Shown here in pieces: positions 22,020 through 28,247 of a stretch of DNA of 28,247 bases. The notes beneath the pieces are model-generated. The model did not search any database, was not told the DNA's origin, and saw only the letters and a list, made by a program, of their open reading frames with translations. Every line of letters begins with the position of its first letter. Positions within the stretch are counted from its first letter, which is position 1. The stretch comes from an uncultured Dehalococcoidaceae bacterium (GTDB taxonomy: Bacteria > Chloroflexota > Dehalococcoidia > Dehalococcoidales > RBG-16-60-22): NCBI GenBank assembly GCA_964489415.1, contig CAZAYK010000001.1, positions 7,324 through 35,570 on the forward strand, in the 5' to 3' direction. The position numbers and the translations under genes were made by a program.

Positions 22020-22703
22020 CTAGCTTAGCTTGATCAGTCCCTGCTTGATGGCTACCACTACCGCCTCGGTGCGGGCATTGGCGTTCAGCTTGCGCAGGAT
22101 GGAGGTAACGTGGTTTTTGATGGTCTGCTCGCTGATGCCCAGTTCGGCAGCAATCTGTTTATTGAGGAACCCCTTGGCGATGTAGTCAAGGATTTCCGTT
22201 TCCCGGGGGGTGAGTGGGGACAGGAAGGCTTCCGCCTCGCTTCGCCAGTACAGTTCCTGAAACTGGTGGAGGACCTGCTCGGCTACCTTGGGGCGGGTGG
22301 TAAGGCTCTCATTTATGGGGTGCTCACCGCGAGCCACCCGCCGGATGATATCAGTAAGCTGGTCAGCGGTAACCTCTTTGCTCAAATAAGCCACCGCCTG
22401 GGCCTTGAGTGCCTGGAAGAGCTGGGCATCATTAGGGTTGGAGGTGAGCACAATTACGCCGATATTCGGGGAGCGTTGCTTTATGCGGTGGGCTAGGTTC
22501 AGGCTGTCATCAGAGGGGCCATCAATATCAACCAGGGCGACATCAGGGGGCAGGTTATCAATGGCGGTAAGTGCCTTCTCGCCAACCTCAACCACGCCGG
22601 AGATTTCAATATCTTCAACATCGGCGAGGGAGTGCTCTACCCCTTGCTGAAACAGGGATTGCTGACTGACGATGAATACCTGTATTTTACTACGCATGTT
22701 CAT
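22020..22703 (-). CDS. NarL/LuxR-family response regulator with atypical receiver
   Basis: REC fold (VALVDIDG, IVLTS, YLSK) and LuxR HTH (LTPRETEIL..IAKG..NKQIA.ELGISEQTIKNHV..IL.KL). The N-terminal acidic pair reads SQ. Confidence 0.92.
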   Translation of the reverse strand: MNMRSKIQVFIVSQQSLFQQGVEHSLADVEDIEISGVVEVGEKALTAIDNLPPDVALVDIDGPSDDSLNLAHRIKQRSPNIGVIVLTSNPNDAQLFQALKAQAVAYLSKEVTADQLTDIIRRVARGEHPINESLTTRPKVAEQVLHQFQELYWRSEAEAFLSPLTPRETEILDYIAKGFLNKQIAAELGISEQTIKNHVTSILRKLNANARTEAVVVAIKQGLIKLS

Positions 22704-22751: not shown

Positions 22752-25700
22752 TCACCTCCTCCCTTCTTGTGGTAGCGGTGCCGCCGTTTTGATCACGGAG
22801 CAGAAAAGCTCAACGAGGCGGGGGTCGAACTGTTTACCGGCCCCCAGCCTTATTTGCTCGAGGGCCCTCTCCGCAGGTAGCGCCTCGGCGCCCCACTGGC
22901 CGGTTGTCAGGGTGGCAAAGGCATCAGCTAGCGCCACAATGCGGGCTTCCAGTGGTATCTCGTCACCTTTCAGTCCCTCGGGGTAGCCGGTACCGTCGTA
23001 GTGCTCATGGTGATGGAGAATGCAATCAACGCAGGGAGCCAGTTGGTGAGACTGGCTGACAATAGCCGCGCCTAATTGCGGGTGGGTTTTGATTACTTCC
23101 TGCTCCTCGGCGGTGAGCTCATCTTGCTTGTTTAGTATCTCATCGCTGATGCCAATCTTGCCAATATCGTGCAGCAGGGCACAGGTTTCCAGCCTGTTTT
23201 TCTCTAGGGGCTCTAGGTTGAGGGCATCGGCCAGGGCCAGGGAGTATTCCACCACCCTCTGGGAATGCTCCCCGGTGTAATGGTCTCTGGCGTCCACCGT
23301 GGCGGCCAGGGCATATATGGAGCTTAGCGCACCGCTGCTGTCATGGGGGATTATGGCGCCGGCGGTGATCCTGCCTGATGGTTGCCGTGTTGCCGAGGCA
23401 CACCGGGTCTGGTTGCCGCCGTTTCGCTTCGCCTGGTAGAGAGCGGCATCAGCGGCGGCGATAATCTCATTGGCCCCGATGCCGTCAGCCGGCCAGGTGG
23501 CCAGCCCCAAACTGGCGGTAAGGGGAACATCTCCGGCGTTCACTGTTTTGGCCACCTTGCGGCGGACTCGTTCCGCCACTTGCTGGGCAGCCTCAACGCC
23601 GGTCTGGGGGAGGAGAATGGCAAACTCATCACCACCGTAGCGGAAGGCCTGGTCAGCGCTTCTTATGGTATTCTTCAGGGTGGTGCCGACCTGCTTGAGG
23701 ATTTTATCCCCGGCGAGGTGGCCGTAGTTATCATTGAATGTCTTGAAGGAATCCAGGTCAAGGATGATTAGTGAGAAGATGCCGCCATAGCGGGAATGGC
23801 GGCCAATTTCGCTGGAAATCATTTCGTCCAGAGAGCGGCGGTTAAGCAGCCCGGTAATCTCATCAACGCGGGCCCGTTCCTCGGCTTTGGCGTAGAGGCG
23901 GGCATTCTCCACAGCGATGGTGATTTGGGGGGATAGATACTCAAGGATCTTGATGTGGCGCTGGCTGATGGCATTGGGCTTAGTGCTGGCTATAACCAGG
24001 CTGCCGATAACGTCACCATCCATCCTTAGGGGTAGGCAAGCTATGTAGCGTATCCCCTGCTCGAGGTGGTAATTGCCGATATCAACGGTGGTGTGCTTCG
24101 CCAGGTCAGGCTCAATCAGCGGTGTTTTGTGCTCAACCACCCATTCGGTAAAGGTGCCCTTGATTGGTATCCTGTCCCCCACGTGAAAGTTGGGGTCTGC
24201 CTTGGCAGATAGCGCCAGGACAAGAAGCTCGTTCTCCTCAACAAGAAGGATTGATGCCCAGTAGATATCTATCAGCTTGTTTAGCTCGACGACGAAGCTA
24301 TCGAATATTTCGTGAATATCCAGCCGGGAGGTAATAATGGCAATTGAACGGTTAAGCAGGGACAGTTCCTCTTCACGTTCCCTGAGCTGCTCCCGCAGGT
24401 ATTCCTTTTCCATGCTTACCGCTACGCGATGGGTGACATCATCGAGCAGATTGAAGTCTTCAAGGGAGTACCGCCCAGACTGTTTTTTACCCAGTACCAG
24501 AATGGCAATTAACTTCTCCCGGCTGATTAGGGGCAGAAATAGTTCTACTTCATGTTGGTTGATTGCTTCCTTTTCCTGCCGCCACAGGCTGCGGAATTCA
24601 GGCAGGATGGACAGGTCCTCCCGGGTCAGCGGTTTTTGTTCAAAACTGAGGTACTTCACAATGGGATTGTCCTCTTTCAGAACAAGCCTGGCCAGGGGGT
24701 TATCCTTACCCTTGGGTTCCGCCAGGTGAAGGGTAAAGTTCCTGCTGTCAGCCTCAGGGAAGAGCAGGCAGGCATGCTTGCAGCCGATGGCTTTGGTGAT
24801 TAGGGATAGCAGCTCACCCCCCTGGGCTTTTAGGCTGAAGACATTGTGTATGGTGTTGGCAAATTGAGATAGCTCTTGGCGGTAGTCATAGCTTTGCCCT
24901 TGGAGGCTGCGGCTAATCAAGGTGAAGATAGAACCGCGCAGTCTGAAGATAAACCAGGCTACAGCAATAGCCACCACGGTGGCGGCCGCCGTGGCGGTCA
25001 GGCTGAGTTCAAAGTCAAGCGCGGCATGAAGGATAAACAGCAAGGTCCAATAGCTGGCAGCACCAATAATCGCCAAGACGACCCAAGCCAATCCTCGCCG
25101 CAAGACAATCCGTATATCAACCAGCTCATGCCTGATGGTGGCAAAGCTGAGGATGAAGGCGTTGATAAGGTTGCCAAAGTGGCTTATGGGGTACTCCTTG
25201 CCCCAGGGTAGCAGCGCTGCCAGGGTGAAGATGGTCAGCGTGCCGAGGCCGAGGAGGAGGGAGATGATTTGATTATACAGGACGGGATTATCGAGGACCT
25301 TTAGCCGTTTCCATAAAGCATAAGCGCTCCGGCCGAGCAGGGTCATCAGGGGCACGAGGAGGAAGATAACCCCGGGGCCGTAGTCAGGATAGAGCTTATC
25401 ACCAATGGCAGTAACCCCTCGGGGGAGAAGGCCCAGCAGCACCGCGGCAACAATCCCGGCTAGGGAAATGTAGGCAAAGGGTAACCAGCGCCCCTGCCCG
25501 GGGGCAAAGAAGGAGGAAACAAAGGTGTAGAACTGGACGGCCATTAAGGGGAAGAAGATGATGATGGCTTTAAGGAGGGGGAGGTTGTACTGGGGGTAGA
25601 AGTTACTGCGGAAGATGTAGTCAGCAAGGCTCCACAGCATAGCCGGAATGAGGAACAGGATGAAGAGCAGATGGCGCCGCTGCCAGGGCCGGCTGCTAAC

Positions 25701-25766
25701 GGTGGTCACCAGCAGTGGTATATAGGCGATTATCGCAATTAAGGGGAATAAAGAATAAATGTTCAT
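22752..25766 (-). CDS. Multi-TM sensor (HisKA_7TM-like)-GAF-GAF-GGDEF-HD-GYP protein (diguanylate cyclase / phosphodiesterase-like)
   Basis: About 280 aa hydrophobic N-terminus; two GAF-like regions; DEITGLLNRR, DLDSFKTFNDNYGHLAGD, RSAD I-site, RYGGDEF; HDIGK, HHHEHYDGTGYP. Start placed at ATG 25766 because the ORF-track TTG coincides with a -35 box. Confidence 0.9.
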   Translation of the reverse strand: MNIYSLFPLIAIIAYIPLLVTTVSSRPWQRRHLLFILFLIPAMLWSLADYIFRSNFYPQYNLPLLKAIIIFFPLMAVQFYTFVSSFFAPGQGRWLPFAYISLAGIVAAVLLGLLPRGVTAIGDKLYPDYGPGVIFLLVPLMTLLGRSAYALWKRLKVLDNPVLYNQIISLLLGLGTLTIFTLAALLPWGKEYPISHFGNLINAFILSFATIRHELVDIRIVLRRGLAWVVLAIIGAASYWTLLFILHAALDFELSLTATAAATVVAIAVAWFIFRLRGSIFTLISRSLQGQSYDYRQELSQFANTIHNVFSLKAQGGELLSLITKAIGCKHACLLFPEADSRNFTLHLAEPKGKDNPLARLVLKEDNPIVKYLSFEQKPLTREDLSILPEFRSLWRQEKEAINQHEVELFLPLISREKLIAILVLGKKQSGRYSLEDFNLLDDVTHRVAVSMEKEYLREQLREREEELSLLNRSIAIITSRLDIHEIFDSFVVELNKLIDIYWASILLVEENELLVLALSAKADPNFHVGDRIPIKGTFTEWVVEHKTPLIEPDLAKHTTVDIGNYHLEQGIRYIACLPLRMDGDVIGSLVIASTKPNAISQRHIKILEYLSPQITIAVENARLYAKAEERARVDEITGLLNRRSLDEMISSEIGRHSRYGGIFSLIILDLDSFKTFNDNYGHLAGDKILKQVGTTLKNTIRSADQAFRYGGDEFAILLPQTGVEAAQQVAERVRRKVAKTVNAGDVPLTASLGLATWPADGIGANEIIAAADAALYQAKRNGGNQTRCASATRQPSGRITAGAIIPHDSSGALSSIYALAATVDARDHYTGEHSQRVVEYSLALADALNLEPLEKNRLETCALLHDIGKIGISDEILNKQDELTAEEQEVIKTHPQLGAAIVSQSHQLAPCVDCILHHHEHYDGTGYPEGLKGDEIPLEARIVALADAFATLTTGQWGAEALPAERALEQIRLGAGKQFDPRLVELFCSVIKTAAPLPQEGRR

Positions 25767-25776
25767 ATTTAGAGAA

Positions 25777-25805
25777 ATTATCGGGGTAAACGTGGAGGCT
25801 GTCAA
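25777..25805 (-). promoter_or_regulatory. sigma70-type promoter of the DGC/HD-GYP gene (near-leaderless)
   Basis: TTGACA (25805-25800), 17 bp spacer, GATAAT (25782-25777); 10 bp to ATG 25766; no SD. Confidence 0.7.
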
Positions 25806-25848: not shown

Positions 25849-27513
25849 CTATCTGGTTGTTGCCCGCTCCGCCTCAGTGGTTACCCTAACCGGAGGTACC
25901 GCCTCGGGCTTGCCGAGCAGTTGTGCCAGCACCCTTTCCGGGGGGTTGATGTGGGGGGGCTTGAGATGGGCGAGGTCAGCACCCTCGGCTTGCCGTTGTG
26001 CGGTGTAATTGGCAAAGGCACCGGGAGGCAGCAGGGTGACCTCTACCCGGAAGTTAATCATATCAGCCAGGTCATCATGAGCCGCTGATGATGTATAGGT
26101 GTCGTTGTCAAGGTGCAGAAGCTGCTGGTGGACGGCGGTGGCAATGTCGGTCTCGTTACCCTTAAAGCTGTCTTTGGGTTCAATGAGCAGGCGCAGTACC
26201 GGCTCCCCCGGTTTCTTAAATGCTGTCCAGTCTTGATAAGCAATTCCGGTATTCTCGATGGCCTGCCAGATCATCTTCTCGGTGAGCCGGATGACGACAA
26301 AATCAAGGAGCCCATCGGCTCGCCTGTCAAAGACCATCTGCGGGATATTAATGCCCAGTTTTTCATTGCGCAGTGAGGTTATCCTGACTATATCGCCGAT
26401 CCGGTAGCGGACCATAGCCCCGCCGTGGAAATTGGTGATGACTATCTCATAATTCTCCCCGGGGTTTACCTCATCAAGCAGCACCGTCTTGGGCTGGTAG
26501 CTGCTGTCCAGCTGCCGTTTGAAGTGCTCATCTTCCGGGATAAACTCAAGGAAGTTAAGGCTGGGGATGAAGGTCATGCTGCCATAATCCCAGGTCTGGG
26601 TGGCGACAATGCCAGCTTCAGTGCTGGCGTAAACATCCAGGGGGTATCTCCCCCATAATTCCTTGATTTTTTCTTTGTAAACCCAGCTGTCCAGCCCGCC
26701 ACTTATAATGCCTTTGACCTTCCAGATATCCCGGGGCAGTAGTGGGCGGCGGGCAAGCTTGCTCTTAATCAGCCCTTTAGTTAGCCGGAGGAGGGCCCGG
26801 GGCTGGGAGAGTAGGGGGAGGGGGTTTGGTTTATCCCGGGACTGGCTAAACCTTTCCCCAACCGCGGCCAGCACCAGAGACAGTCCGAAGAAGTAGTCAA
26901 GCCCCTCGGACAGGGCTTGCTGAAAGGCGAGCTGTATCCTTTCCTCAAAGGATAGCCTTTCCGCTTCTTCCAGGGGGGGCAGGTATTTGGACGGGCTTTG
27001 CAGTTCCAGCATCTGGGCCATGGTACCGGACATATACGGCCGGGGGGCTACGGTATAGACAATCTTGGGGCACTCCCTGAGCTGGGAGGTATCCCCCCGC
27101 CCCTTACATCCGGAGAGAATGCCTACGCCGTACATTACCGCGCTTAATTCTTCACAAAATGCCCGGGGCAGCGGTACCCACTTGCAGGGGTATTCGCCAG
27201 ACCTGCCCGAGGTGTGCACCCACATGGCCGGTTTGGCGGGTAATATGTCTTCTCTCTGCTCAGCAAGTTCCGGGCAATAATCAGCATAGGTGGTTAGCGG
27301 CACCCATTGCCGAAACTCGTCAACCGTCCTTGGTTTTGCCCCGCGCATAATCTTCTCGCCCAGCTTGCTGCGGTTTAACAGTTCCAGTTGTTCCAGCAGT
27401 AGGCGTCTCTGGATAGCCATGAATTGCTCAATATCCAGGCTGGTAAAGCCACAGCACATTTGCCATAGCTCTCCGTTCCTGCCCTGCTGCAGAAGCTCAA
27501 CTGCCCGTGGCAT
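25849..27513 (-). CDS. GH3-family (auxin-responsive promoter family) acyl-acid amido synthetase
   Basis: GH3/ANL motifs TSGRSGEYPCKWVP (P-loop), YASTEAG and YRIGD; also PLTTYADY, FLEFIP and YEIVITNFHGG. SD GGGAGGT before ATG. Confidence 0.88.
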   Translation of the reverse strand: MPRAVELLQQGRNGELWQMCCGFTSLDIEQFMAIQRRLLLEQLELLNRSKLGEKIMRGAKPRTVDEFRQWVPLTTYADYCPELAEQREDILPAKPAMWVHTSGRSGEYPCKWVPLPRAFCEELSAVMYGVGILSGCKGRGDTSQLRECPKIVYTVAPRPYMSGTMAQMLELQSPSKYLPPLEEAERLSFEERIQLAFQQALSEGLDYFFGLSLVLAAVGERFSQSRDKPNPLPLLSQPRALLRLTKGLIKSKLARRPLLPRDIWKVKGIISGGLDSWVYKEKIKELWGRYPLDVYASTEAGIVATQTWDYGSMTFIPSLNFLEFIPEDEHFKRQLDSSYQPKTVLLDEVNPGENYEIVITNFHGGAMVRYRIGDIVRITSLRNEKLGINIPQMVFDRRADGLLDFVVIRLTEKMIWQAIENTGIAYQDWTAFKKPGEPVLRLLIEPKDSFKGNETDIATAVHQQLLHLDNDTYTSSAAHDDLADMINFRVEVTLLPPGAFANYTAQRQAEGADLAHLKPPHINPPERVLAQLLGKPEAVPPVRVTTEAERATTR

Positions 27514-27520
27514 CTATACC

Positions 27521-27575
27521 TCCCAAGCTAAAACAGTAACAAATTTAACTATGGCAGGTGTCGCTTAGCTTGGGA
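27521..27575. repeat. Perfect 11-bp inverted repeat with 33-nt spacer covering the GH3 SD
   Basis: TCCCAAGCTAA (27521-27531) and TTAGCTTGGGA (27565-27575). Confidence 0.8.
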
Positions 27576-27576
27576 A
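27548..27576 (-). promoter_or_regulatory. Candidate promoter of the GH3 gene
   Basis: TTCCCA (27576-27571), 17 bp spacer, TGc then CATAGT (27553-27548); both hexamers match consensus at 4/6. Confidence 0.4.
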
Positions 27577-27665
27577 GTGATTGGGTTCTAGAACGCAGTT
27601 CTATTAGGGGAAAGTGCCCGCTTGCTGGTGAGGACAGGTATGTTGATGGTGGTATCGGGGGGTGA

Positions 27666-28022
27666 TTAGAGGTCGGTGGTGGCTTCTTTAGAATCGGACA
27701 GCTCTTGTAGCTGCTCCTTCAGCTCCTCGAGGCTTTGTGCCCGGGGCAGCTTAAATAGATCCAGCCCGTAGCCGAGGAAGAACTCGAGGAAATTGCGGAG
27801 TAGCTCCCTGACCCGGTGCATGAACTGGAAGAATTCTTCTCGGGTGATGTATTCGGCAGGGCTGGGGGCTTCACTGGGCTGTAATTGGCGATCAATGAGG
27901 TGATGGAGGTATTCGGGGCGGCTCATATCGCCCCGTCTTTGGTCAATCTTTCTGACCAGGGCATCATCAATGACGAGGATTGCCTGGTTTTCATCAACTA
28001 TAAGTACCCGATTCGCGGCCAC
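27666..28022 (-). CDS. Hypothetical protein with ribbon-helix-helix (CopG-like) signature
   Basis: ILVIDDALVRKIDQRRGDMSRPEYLHHLID fits the strand-helix-G.SR..Y-helix pattern; amphipathic helical C-terminus; GTG start with SD AAGGGG. Confidence 0.7.
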   Translation of the reverse strand: MAANRVLIVDENQAILVIDDALVRKIDQRRGDMSRPEYLHHLIDRQLQPSEAPSPAEYITREEFFQFMHRVRELLRNFLEFFLGYGLDLFKLPRAQSLEELKEQLQELSDSKEATTDL

Positions 28023-28066
28023 CTGGTGCCCCCTTGGCTAGGTATTATTTGCATTCTACCTTAAAT

Positions 28067-28075
28067 AAATATAGC
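28067..28075 (-). promoter_or_regulatory. Extended -10 promoter candidate for the RHH-like gene
   Basis: TGcTATATT on the minus strand; no recognisable -35; phased repeats lie just upstream. Confidence 0.45.
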
Positions 28076-28247
28076 ACCAGGGCATAAAGCCGAGTATAAA
28101 GGTAATAAACATTACATAAAGTTTTCATTAAGGTTTTGTTAACAGGGGCTGGGGCCGGGGGTAAAAAGGAATAGCCCGAAGACTTAACTGTCCTCAGGCT
28201 ATTAATCGGCGGTTATTGTTAACTGGGCAGTGGCTAGGCAGCGTTCT

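Follow-up and report, generated by a model that had tools for sequence, protein, structure and literature searches.

A conserved inverted repeat shared by a predicted promoter and a Shine-Dalgarno sequence may make translation of a bacterial GH3-family gene depend on transcript origin

Gene organization at the locus

The window is the 28,247-nucleotide stretch of DNA analysed here; the assembly from which it comes is 1.19 Mb in size and 84.5% complete. Three minus-strand genes of the window concern us, together with the features between and around them (Table 1). GH3, the controlled gene, has orthologs with 59–75% identity in 22 loci of the same family. A homolog of the GGDEF/HD-GYP gene follows GH3 on the same strand in all 15 loci checked, and this gene is probably the operon partner of GH3. 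For GH3 in Dehalococcoidia, the matches listed in a literature search concerned plant GH3 only.

The small gene upstream of GH3 has homologs in the same place in 16 of 29 other loci searched with tblastn, and a co-directional open reading frame of ~106–129 aa stands upstream of GH3 in most of 71 loci (50 of the 71 by a strict motif). Its 118-aa protein has no Pfam match and no PDB sequence or profile match below E = 0.029, and a Foldseek search with the AF2 monomer model found nothing. That model (mean pLDDT 73.7) places a strand at residues 14–19, helices at residues 20–29 and 35–47 (pLDDT ~88) and then two long helices, an order that would fit a ribbon-helix-helix (RHH) head followed by a helical tail. 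Since Pfam, PDB and Foldseek gave no match, the label RHH, provisional as we use it, rests on this order of predicted elements and on a sequence pattern recognized by eye. The block upstream of the small gene, in which its likely promoter lies, is conserved in most of 50 orthologous loci.

Some relatives are arranged differently, the immediate upstream neighbour of GH3 being divergent and encoding an HTH_17 protein of 63–72 aa. At these loci a unit of the HTH_17 gene and a ketoacyl synthase gene is inserted in the opposite direction, and in four of five such genomes searched an RHH-like gene is found 1.7–1.9 kb upstream on the GH3 strand.

Table 1. Positions of the features at the GH3 locus, in window coordinates.
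Feature	Position	Strand	Remarks
Membrane-GAF-GGDEF-HD (GYP-type) gene	22752..25805	-	44 nt downstream of GH3; Pfam
GH3-family gene, 554 aa, controlled gene	25849..27513	-	Pfam GH3_M 1.1e-15, GH3 5.9e-07
Downstream arm TTAGCTTGGGAGGT	27518..27531	-	holds Shine-Dalgarno GGGAGGT (27524-27518)
Extended -10 TGcCATAGT	27548..27556	-	17 nt past TTCCCA; predicted start ~27541-27540, between arms
Upstream arm ACTTCCCAAGCTAA	27565..27578	-	would be anti-Shine-Dalgarno in RNA; holds -35 hexamer TTCCCA (27576-27571)
Operator-like element TAGAACTGCGTTCTAGAAC	27585..27603	.	three alternating AGAAC/GTTCT half-sites including palindrome GTTCTAGAAC
Small gene, 118 aa, RHH-like N-terminus (provisional) and helical C-terminal part	27666..28022	-	open reading frame; co-directional, upstream of GH3
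Likely small-gene promoter region	28068..28125	-	extended -10 TGcTATATT (28076-28068) after phased TTTAT repeats; by eye
Terminator-like hairpin ending the unit upstream of the small gene	28170..28203	-	14 pairs, T-rich tail

An inverted repeat over the GH3 Shine-Dalgarno sequence

Small gene and GH3 are separated by 152 nt, and this gap contains both arms of an inverted repeat. A repeat search returned arms of 14 nt that are 93% complementary across a 33-nt gap. On the coding (minus) strand, ACUUCCCAAGCUAAG and UUUAGCUUGGGAGGU form a 15-bp helix with two G·U pairs and an 11-bp Watson–Crick core, which is the repeat that an earlier note on this DNA had described; we quote its length as 14–15 bp. 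The same note had set the arm centres 44 bp apart; they measure 46–47 bp. The Shine-Dalgarno sequence (SD), GGGAGGU in RNA, lies wholly inside the downstream arm, with 4 nt between it and the GH3 ATG (27513–27511). A short motif from the 16S rRNA 3′ end matches at only four sites on four contigs of this genome, and the search with it identified no rRNA gene there.

The uninterrupted helix over the SD is exceptional for its length. At 15 bp it ranks first among 334 GGAGG-led open reading frame starts of the same genome (mean 6.5, next-best 13). Its RNAduplex energy of −25.3, in contrast, ranks 131st of the 334, whose mean is −24.1, and because energy is undiscriminating as a genome-wide null we used uninterrupted helix length instead. 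Folding energies of longer segments are similar in this respect: a 101-nt fold has −26.8 kcal/mol (z = −1.53; 13 of 200 shuffles equally stable) and a 177-nt fold has z = −0.95. Folding energy by itself is unexceptional, and it is conservation that settles whether the repeat is more than chance.

A dedicated operator-like element and a predicted internal promoter

Just upstream of the −35 hexamer sits an element with the form TAGAAC-N3-GTTCTAGAAC, the most conserved block in 71 aligned leaders and the holder of most of their invariant columns. At divergent-neighbour loci it is a full double TTCTAGAA palindrome, flanked by −35 boxes that stand back to back. Each motif of the operator and of the block around it occurs only at this locus in the 1.19-Mb genome, making this a dedicated local element, not a regulon motif. 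The idea that the TAGAAC/GTTCTA element is a LexA-like or other regulon motif was rejected, as the genome has it at this one locus and its half-sites are 3 nt apart. The earlier note had missed this operator; judged by its conservation, a protein probably binds here rather than at the two arms.

The operator begins a longer block that precedes GH3 in relatives. In order, this comprises TAGAAC-N3-GTTCTAGAAC, 7–8 nt, CACTTCCCAAGC, C(A/T)TAG(T/G)C(T/A), a variable stretch, TAGCTTG(G/A)GAGGTG and the start codon. Searched with a degenerate pattern (operator, CACTTCCCAA, C(A/T)TAG(T/G)C(T/A)), 69 genomes out of 110 in the family gave matches, most of them with one copy; the reversed control gave 0. 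The pattern has 81 instances: 71 stand no more than 200 nt upstream of a GH3 start, 8 point towards a small divergent gene and 2 towards a membrane-protein gene preceding GH3. The block is conserved across at least 31 of 41 genera sampled in the one family; the relatives of the window's assembly are Dehalococcoidales/Dehalococcoidia MAGs. In the 71-leader alignment two further stretches are both conserved and complementary, AGCTA in the promoter spacer and TAGCTTG upstream of the SD, and neither the −35 box nor the SD accounts for them.

The promoter itself was predicted in the earlier note as TTCCCA-17-TGcCATAGT. A consensus promoter scan of positions 27300–28247 returned 0 sites, the hexamers matching the sigma-70-type consensus at only 8 of 12 positions, so that the promoter is too weak to be seen in this way. 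Comparison among relatives nevertheless supports it well, through the conserved box, a mirrored promoter and leaderless loci. The −10 box is conserved in 69 of the 71 leaders (2 have no box) and occupies one of two registers after CTTCCCAA, each of which offers a TAnnnT-type hexamer at a 17-nt spacer. In the +16/+17 register, used by 18 of the 71 leaders including that of the window, the hexamer is CATAGT and is preceded by TG in every case. In the +14/+15 register it is TAG(T/G)CT; 26 leaders were assigned here by regular expression and another 25 by eye, the expression having registered the box early in these.

The loci with a divergent HTH_17 gene present the same arrangement in mirror image. 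Across the operator from the GH3 side, CTCTTC(A/C)CA is followed after 17 nt by TATGCT, TATACT, TATCCT or TAGGCT in 9 of 11 loci, and as a predicted promoter this HTH-side copy is the better, canonical one of the pair. Two orthologs from more distant families (L028 and L029) retain the operator and TTCCAA-N17-TGcCATA(T/G)T, and their ATG codons follow the −10 by 6 and 10 nt; their mRNAs would therefore be leaderless or nearly so. Such leaderless use, as predicted, leaves no room for any role of these elements besides that of a promoter. Another distant ortholog, L025, has a promoter nearer consensus and no repeat. The comparative evidence, rather than any consensus match, thus supports well an authentic internal promoter for GH3, with a predicted start between the arms. 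Relative to this start the operator would have its centres near −48 and −61, a placement fitting for an activator, or for a control region common to two divergent genes.

Since the predicted start (~27541) is downstream of the upstream arm, pairing between the arms could matter only in RNA begun further upstream. Most simply, such RNA would be read-through from the co-directional RHH-like gene.

Conservation and covariation of the arms

An explicit 20-pair helix was scored over the 71 aligned leaders, giving 1335 cells, and compared with 500 shuffles. Pairing cells make up 75.3% of the total against 72.0±0.5 in the shuffles, and fall to 30–46% if the partner columns are shifted along. Both-side changes occur in 69 cells against 34.9±6.5, and the covariation score is 0.139 against 0.103; none of the 500 shuffles reached the observed value in any of the three measures. 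Changes in step are seen both at the distal end, where pair 53/139 covaries (UA 25, CG 16, UG 9), and in the core, where CCCC accompanies GGGG in L013, L065 and L097. A further example is CCCAAGCTAAG/TTAGCTTGGG of the window versus CCCAAACCAGT/ACTGGTTTGGG of L005. RNAalifold did not call the SD helix in the 71 leaders and returned only a 5-bp TAGAAC hairpin, which is why the helix was tested with an explicit structure. Covariation in orthologous leaders, which the earlier note had named as a check on its proposal, gives a divided answer: the register is specific and the signal exceeds all 500 shuffles, but it is modest, and the complementarity comes mostly from two conserved arms, not from compensation.

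This last result raises an alternative that we judge unlikely but of real weight, namely that complementarity is a by-product. The upstream arm would be conserved for the −35 box and for contacts with a regulator or RNA polymerase, the downstream arm for a long SD and an unknown element, and their pairing would have no function of its own. Permutation of partners among 107 leaders (the 71 plus 36 further metagenomic leaders) speaks for it, as the longest helix only drops from 9.58 to 9.14 bp (composition shuffles, 6.35 bp); in a separate permutation the distal pairs drop only from 5.63 to 5.04 of 10. Relatedness among leaders can inflate such tests. Helix length across the 107 leaders ranges from 5 to 19 bp (median 9). 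Pair 47/145 is broken in 27 of the 71 leaders, and 22 of these carry a GAGAGG variant that leaves an uncompensated C·A mismatch at the helix centre. G·U cells (116) are not commoner than A·C cells (122), hence nothing here points to selection acting on the sense RNA specifically, and duplex energies for sense and antisense are alike (−21.9 and −21.4). The unremarkable rank of the RNAduplex energy in the genome points the same way.

The by-product explanation has to contend, however, with the sharply specific register, with the excess of both-side changes and with the core that changes in step. It also needs unexplained reasons for AGCTA and TAGCTTG being conserved and complementary. Moreover, the mirrored promoter lacks such pairing. 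In nine divergent loci the −35 region was paired with the SD of its own gene; the duplex has −16.6 to −30.0 kcal/mol on the GH3 side versus −5.5 to −13.3 on that of the HTH gene, so the pairing at GH3 is not a general consequence of a TTCCCA box meeting GGAGG.

Alternative roles of the arms

The earlier note had offered a second reading, in which the arms are operators in DNA about four helical turns apart. Both arms would be bound by a single protein, such as the RHH-like or the HTH_17 one, with DNA looping or obstruction of the promoter and of the first transcribed stretch as the result. The symmetry of the repeat, with no strand bias, would suit this, as would the two small DNA-binding proteins encoded nearby (the RHH-like one provisionally so) and a third AGCT-containing motif, TGTAGCT, seen by eye close to the predicted start in many long leaders. 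The idea drew on phasing and is weakened by the orthologs, in which the span between the CTTCCCAA box and the start codon varies from 52 to 97 nt without helical phasing. Distally the arms vary, in part together, which is not expected of a site that one protein recognizes in both, and the far better conserved, locus-unique TAGAAC/GTTCTAGAAC is the obvious protein site. We consider the arms improbable as DNA operators.

Predicted folds bear on the RNA-level readings. In long leaders, that is, those containing both arms, the SD pairs with the upstream arm with a mean probability of 0.77 over 68 orthologs, in agreement with the earlier proposal that the SD is buried in any RNA that holds both arms. 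The companion proposal, a free SD in the short mRNA, fared less evenly. The mean unpaired probability of the SD over the 68 leaders rises from 0.09 (long) to 0.33 (short), but in the short leader of the window itself it is only 0.04, from predicted pairing with codons 9–11; this helix is weak, the fold (−11.6 kcal/mol, z = +0.26) being no better than shuffles.

A stable SD-sequestering helix would also be expected of a leader that is always transcribed. Here the GH3 start would lie upstream of the operator, the helix would be an SD switch opened by a ligand, a protein or temperature, and the conserved CAUAGUCU would be an RNA element. The helix does enclose a box that is conserved and unpaired, many leaders also have a hairpin UUUGCC-N4-GGCAAA inside it, and the repeat persists, equally strong, in nine loci with a divergent immediate upstream neighbour. 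Against this stand the promoter results: the same −35/−10 pair drives the genes predicted to be leaderless in L028 and L029, a canonical promoter mirrors it on the HTH side, and the 2-nt shift in box register goes along with another −10 hexamer and with a TG motif. Nor does the RNA match a curated cis-regulatory family, whether riboswitch, thermometer or leader. Rfam gave 0 matches at the gathering score for the whole window and, for positions 27450–27720 at E < 10, only an unrelated sRNA (12.2 bits versus a gathering score of 37.8), which bears out the earlier statement that the region does not look like c-di-GMP-I or c-di-GMP-II riboswitches; the RNAalifold consensus is limited to the operator hairpin. 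With no apparent mechanism to open a helix of −22 to −30 kcal/mol in addition, an always-transcribed leader is very improbable.

An invertible promoter segment, with the arms as recombination sites that flip the −10, is the least probable of these readings: inverted repeats do flank part of the promoter and HTH_17 domains occur in excisionases too, but the segment between the arms is just 33 nt in the window, neither the Pfam scan of the window nor the divergent cassette has a recombinase (the gene beside the HTH gene is the ketoacyl synthase), and the box has one orientation in all 69 cases found among the 71 leaders scanned, with no flipped copy seen by eye in 36 further leaders.

Comparison with known systems

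The closest precedent is fold-back inhibition in IS10/Tn10 and IS50. For IS10/Tn10 (and IS50/Tn5), Davis, Simons & Kleckner reportedly described in Cell in 1985 how externally initiated transposase transcripts are inhibited: only transcripts from outside are said to hold the arm that pairs with the transposase ribosome-binding site, so that they are translationally silent, while transcripts from the resident promoter are translated. As in those elements, one arm at GH3 covers the ribosome-binding site; the other would lie upstream of the start predicted by comparison for the resident promoter. The GH3 locus differs in being a conserved chromosomal operon of a small regulator gene, GH3 and the GGDEF/HD-GYP gene instead of a mobile element. 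It differs too in that the resident promoter supplies the upstream arm from its own −35 box and spacer, and in that this promoter carries a dedicated operator. The controlled gene being GH3 in conserved chromosomal synteny and not a transposase, the arrangement would work like fold-back inhibition and is not a member of that element family. Sequestration of IS10 translation signals in secondary structure is mentioned in a published account (PMC13181058).

A cis-encoded inverted repeat also hides an SD in the tnpA 5′ UTR of IS200, where a stem-loop represses translation (PMC4513863). Both IS200 arms are within the normal 5′ UTR, so that repression is constitutive, and a separate terminator guards against impinging transcription, whereas at GH3 the upstream arm is outside the predicted native transcript. 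SD-sequestering riboswitches and RNA thermometers share an anti-SD:SD helix as the off state. At GH3, unlike these, there is no Rfam match, no conserved structure resembling a ligand pocket and no RNAalifold consensus fold, and the anti-SD is in promoter DNA upstream of the predicted start.

Retroregulation of phage lambda int by sib is likewise a case in which the expression of one gene depends on promoter origin and one form of the transcript has the complete RNA helix. There, the sib element is located downstream of the gene and works by RNase III cleavage and decay, in place of SD hiding.

A model for origin-dependent translation of GH3

The best available reading is the one that the earlier note put first, in which the origin of the transcript decides whether GH3 is translated. 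According to this reading a regulated internal promoter would drive GH3, and the same DNA would act as an anti-SD in RNA made from further upstream. Transcription from ~27541 would yield an mRNA with a ~27-nt 5′ UTR lacking the anti-SD. The promoter of the small RHH-like gene would give RNA that runs through into GH3 and carries both arms; in the window, the stretch from the small gene to the operator has no predicted terminator, from which we infer the read-through. In this two-arm RNA the 14–15 bp helix would bury GGGAGGU, leaving GH3 presumably untranslated. The GGDEF/HD-GYP gene would escape silencing unless its translation depends on that of GH3. GH3 would then be made only when a regulator bound at the operator lets the internal promoter fire, and the protein that decides the timing would probably be the RHH-like protein, the HTH_17 protein or both.

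We hold this reading and a wider form of it with different confidence. The reading itself, in which read-through transcripts are kept from translation in the manner of IS10 fold-back inhibition and translatable mRNA comes from the regulated internal promoter, seems to us evenly balanced between true and false. The wider statement we offer more tentatively, at somewhat less than an even chance: a dual-coded element, kept throughout one family of Dehalococcoidales, in which −35 box and spacer double as the anti-SD, so that GH3 is translated only from messages started there and every upstream-derived message is silenced.

If the model is true, the locus would be a chromosomal counterpart of transposon fold-back inhibition, an insulator built in between regulator gene and target within a single transcription unit. 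Promoter DNA would then carry a second, RNA-level meaning by which transcript origin decides translation, and bacteria could insulate a gene from read-through without a terminator. Such logic has so far been documented mainly for insertion sequences; a conserved chromosomal case with a dedicated operator would turn it into a testable general design principle. Coverage of GH3 mRNA would also not imply protein, which matters for how operon structure and RNA-seq are read in uncultured bacteria. The element would further offer a way into how an uncharacterised bacterial operon, in which GH3 is joined with a c-di-GMP enzyme, is regulated.

Terminators and possible sources of two-arm RNA

Where a strong terminator does separate GH3 from upstream transcription, the repeat tends to be weak or absent in the few cases at hand. 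Two family members (L009 and L091) have such a terminator between the small gene and the operator, and their repeats are weak (6–7 bp, −9.1 and −16.4 kcal/mol). The distant L028 and L029 have one just upstream of the operator and no SD, hence no repeat. These cases fit insulation against read-through, resting as they do on very few loci: a survey of 106 loci gave 10 terminator-like hits, only 2 of them convincing, which is too few to test for a correlation with repeat strength.

In the nine loci with a divergent immediate neighbour, read-through would need another source. One candidate is the RHH-like gene found 1.7–1.9 kb upstream. A second was seen by eye in about six of the nine, where TTGAC(C/T)-N16-(T/C)AG(C/T/G)AT faces GH3 and shares the −10 of the HTH promoter; this GH3-facing pair could be a second, distal start.

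A conserved operator-like element upstream of GH3

The operator-like element TAGAAC-N3-GTTCTAGAAC is the most highly conserved of the non-coding elements of the region, and no second copy of it was found elsewhere in the window's genome. At nine related loci with a divergent neighbour (L004, L005, L007, L010, L011, L056, L069, L071 and L072) it takes the form of a double TTCTAGAA palindrome, the centres of which are 13 bp apart, flanked by two back-to-back -35 boxes.

Some genera carry an inserted divergent unit that separates the RHH-like gene from GH3 (L239, G009:C26:9900-12300; L240; L055). This unit comprises an HTH_17 protein of 63-72 amino acids and a beta-ketoacyl synthase of 422 amino acids, and the operator is common to it and GH3.

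Between the upstream gene and the operator, convincing terminators were detected at only two loci, L009 and L091 (see also L173), and each coincides with a degenerate repeat of 6-7 bp. In two other families of the order (L028, G033:C1; L029, G028:C3) the same operator and promoter lie immediately after a strong terminator, and there the promoter drives an apparently leaderless gene for a membrane protein of ~196 amino acids that precedes GH3; in L029 this gene and GH3 apparently form a single fused frame of 744 aa.

Features of the window, with the basis on which each is listed
Feature	Position	Strand	Basis or context
LuxR-type response regulator gene	22020-22703		next after the membrane-GAF-GGDEF-HD(GYP-type) gene
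Membrane-GAF-GGDEF-HD(GYP-type) gene	22752-25805	same as GH3	
Operator-like element	27585-27603		conservation
Conserved block upstream of the small RHH-like gene	~28068-28125	minus	comparison of orthologous regions

Gene neighbourhood and paralogs of GH3

In all 15 loci checked (among L003-L023), the next gene after GH3 on its strand is the membrane-GAF-GGDEF-HD(GYP-type) gene, whose homologs share 48-65% identity across the first ~460 residues. This pairing ties the GH3-family enzyme to c-di-GMP turnover. Two or three GH3 paralogs are present in many genomes of the family (G002, G005, G006, G007, G019 and others), and the additional copies have ~40% identity to the window's GH3 protein; the conserved GH3 leader is in most cases present once per genome.

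Variation within the leaders and upstream of the RHH-like gene

In many leaders of the +14 class, whose -10 box lies at the +14/+15 register, the stretch from this box to the SD arm includes TTTGCC-N4-GGCAAA, a palindrome or hairpin. Its half-sites are conserved and its central 4 nt variable, as exemplified by the long leaders L012, L016, L046, L070 and L099 (columns 97-114 of A1, the alignment of 71 GH3 leaders); it is absent from the window's leader. This class also has a conserved TGTAGCT near the predicted transcription start. Locus L006 has ATA as the codon aligned to the GH3 start (L006:1501), which may reflect an unusual start codon, a start elsewhere or a sequencing error.

The block before the small RHH-like gene has four TTTAT repeats spaced by ~10 nt and, after them, an extended -10, which reads TGcTATATT in the window. 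Other orthologs form a second group, in which no promoter is visible and the place of the TTTAT block is taken by a terminator hairpin ~25 nt before the SD of the small gene.
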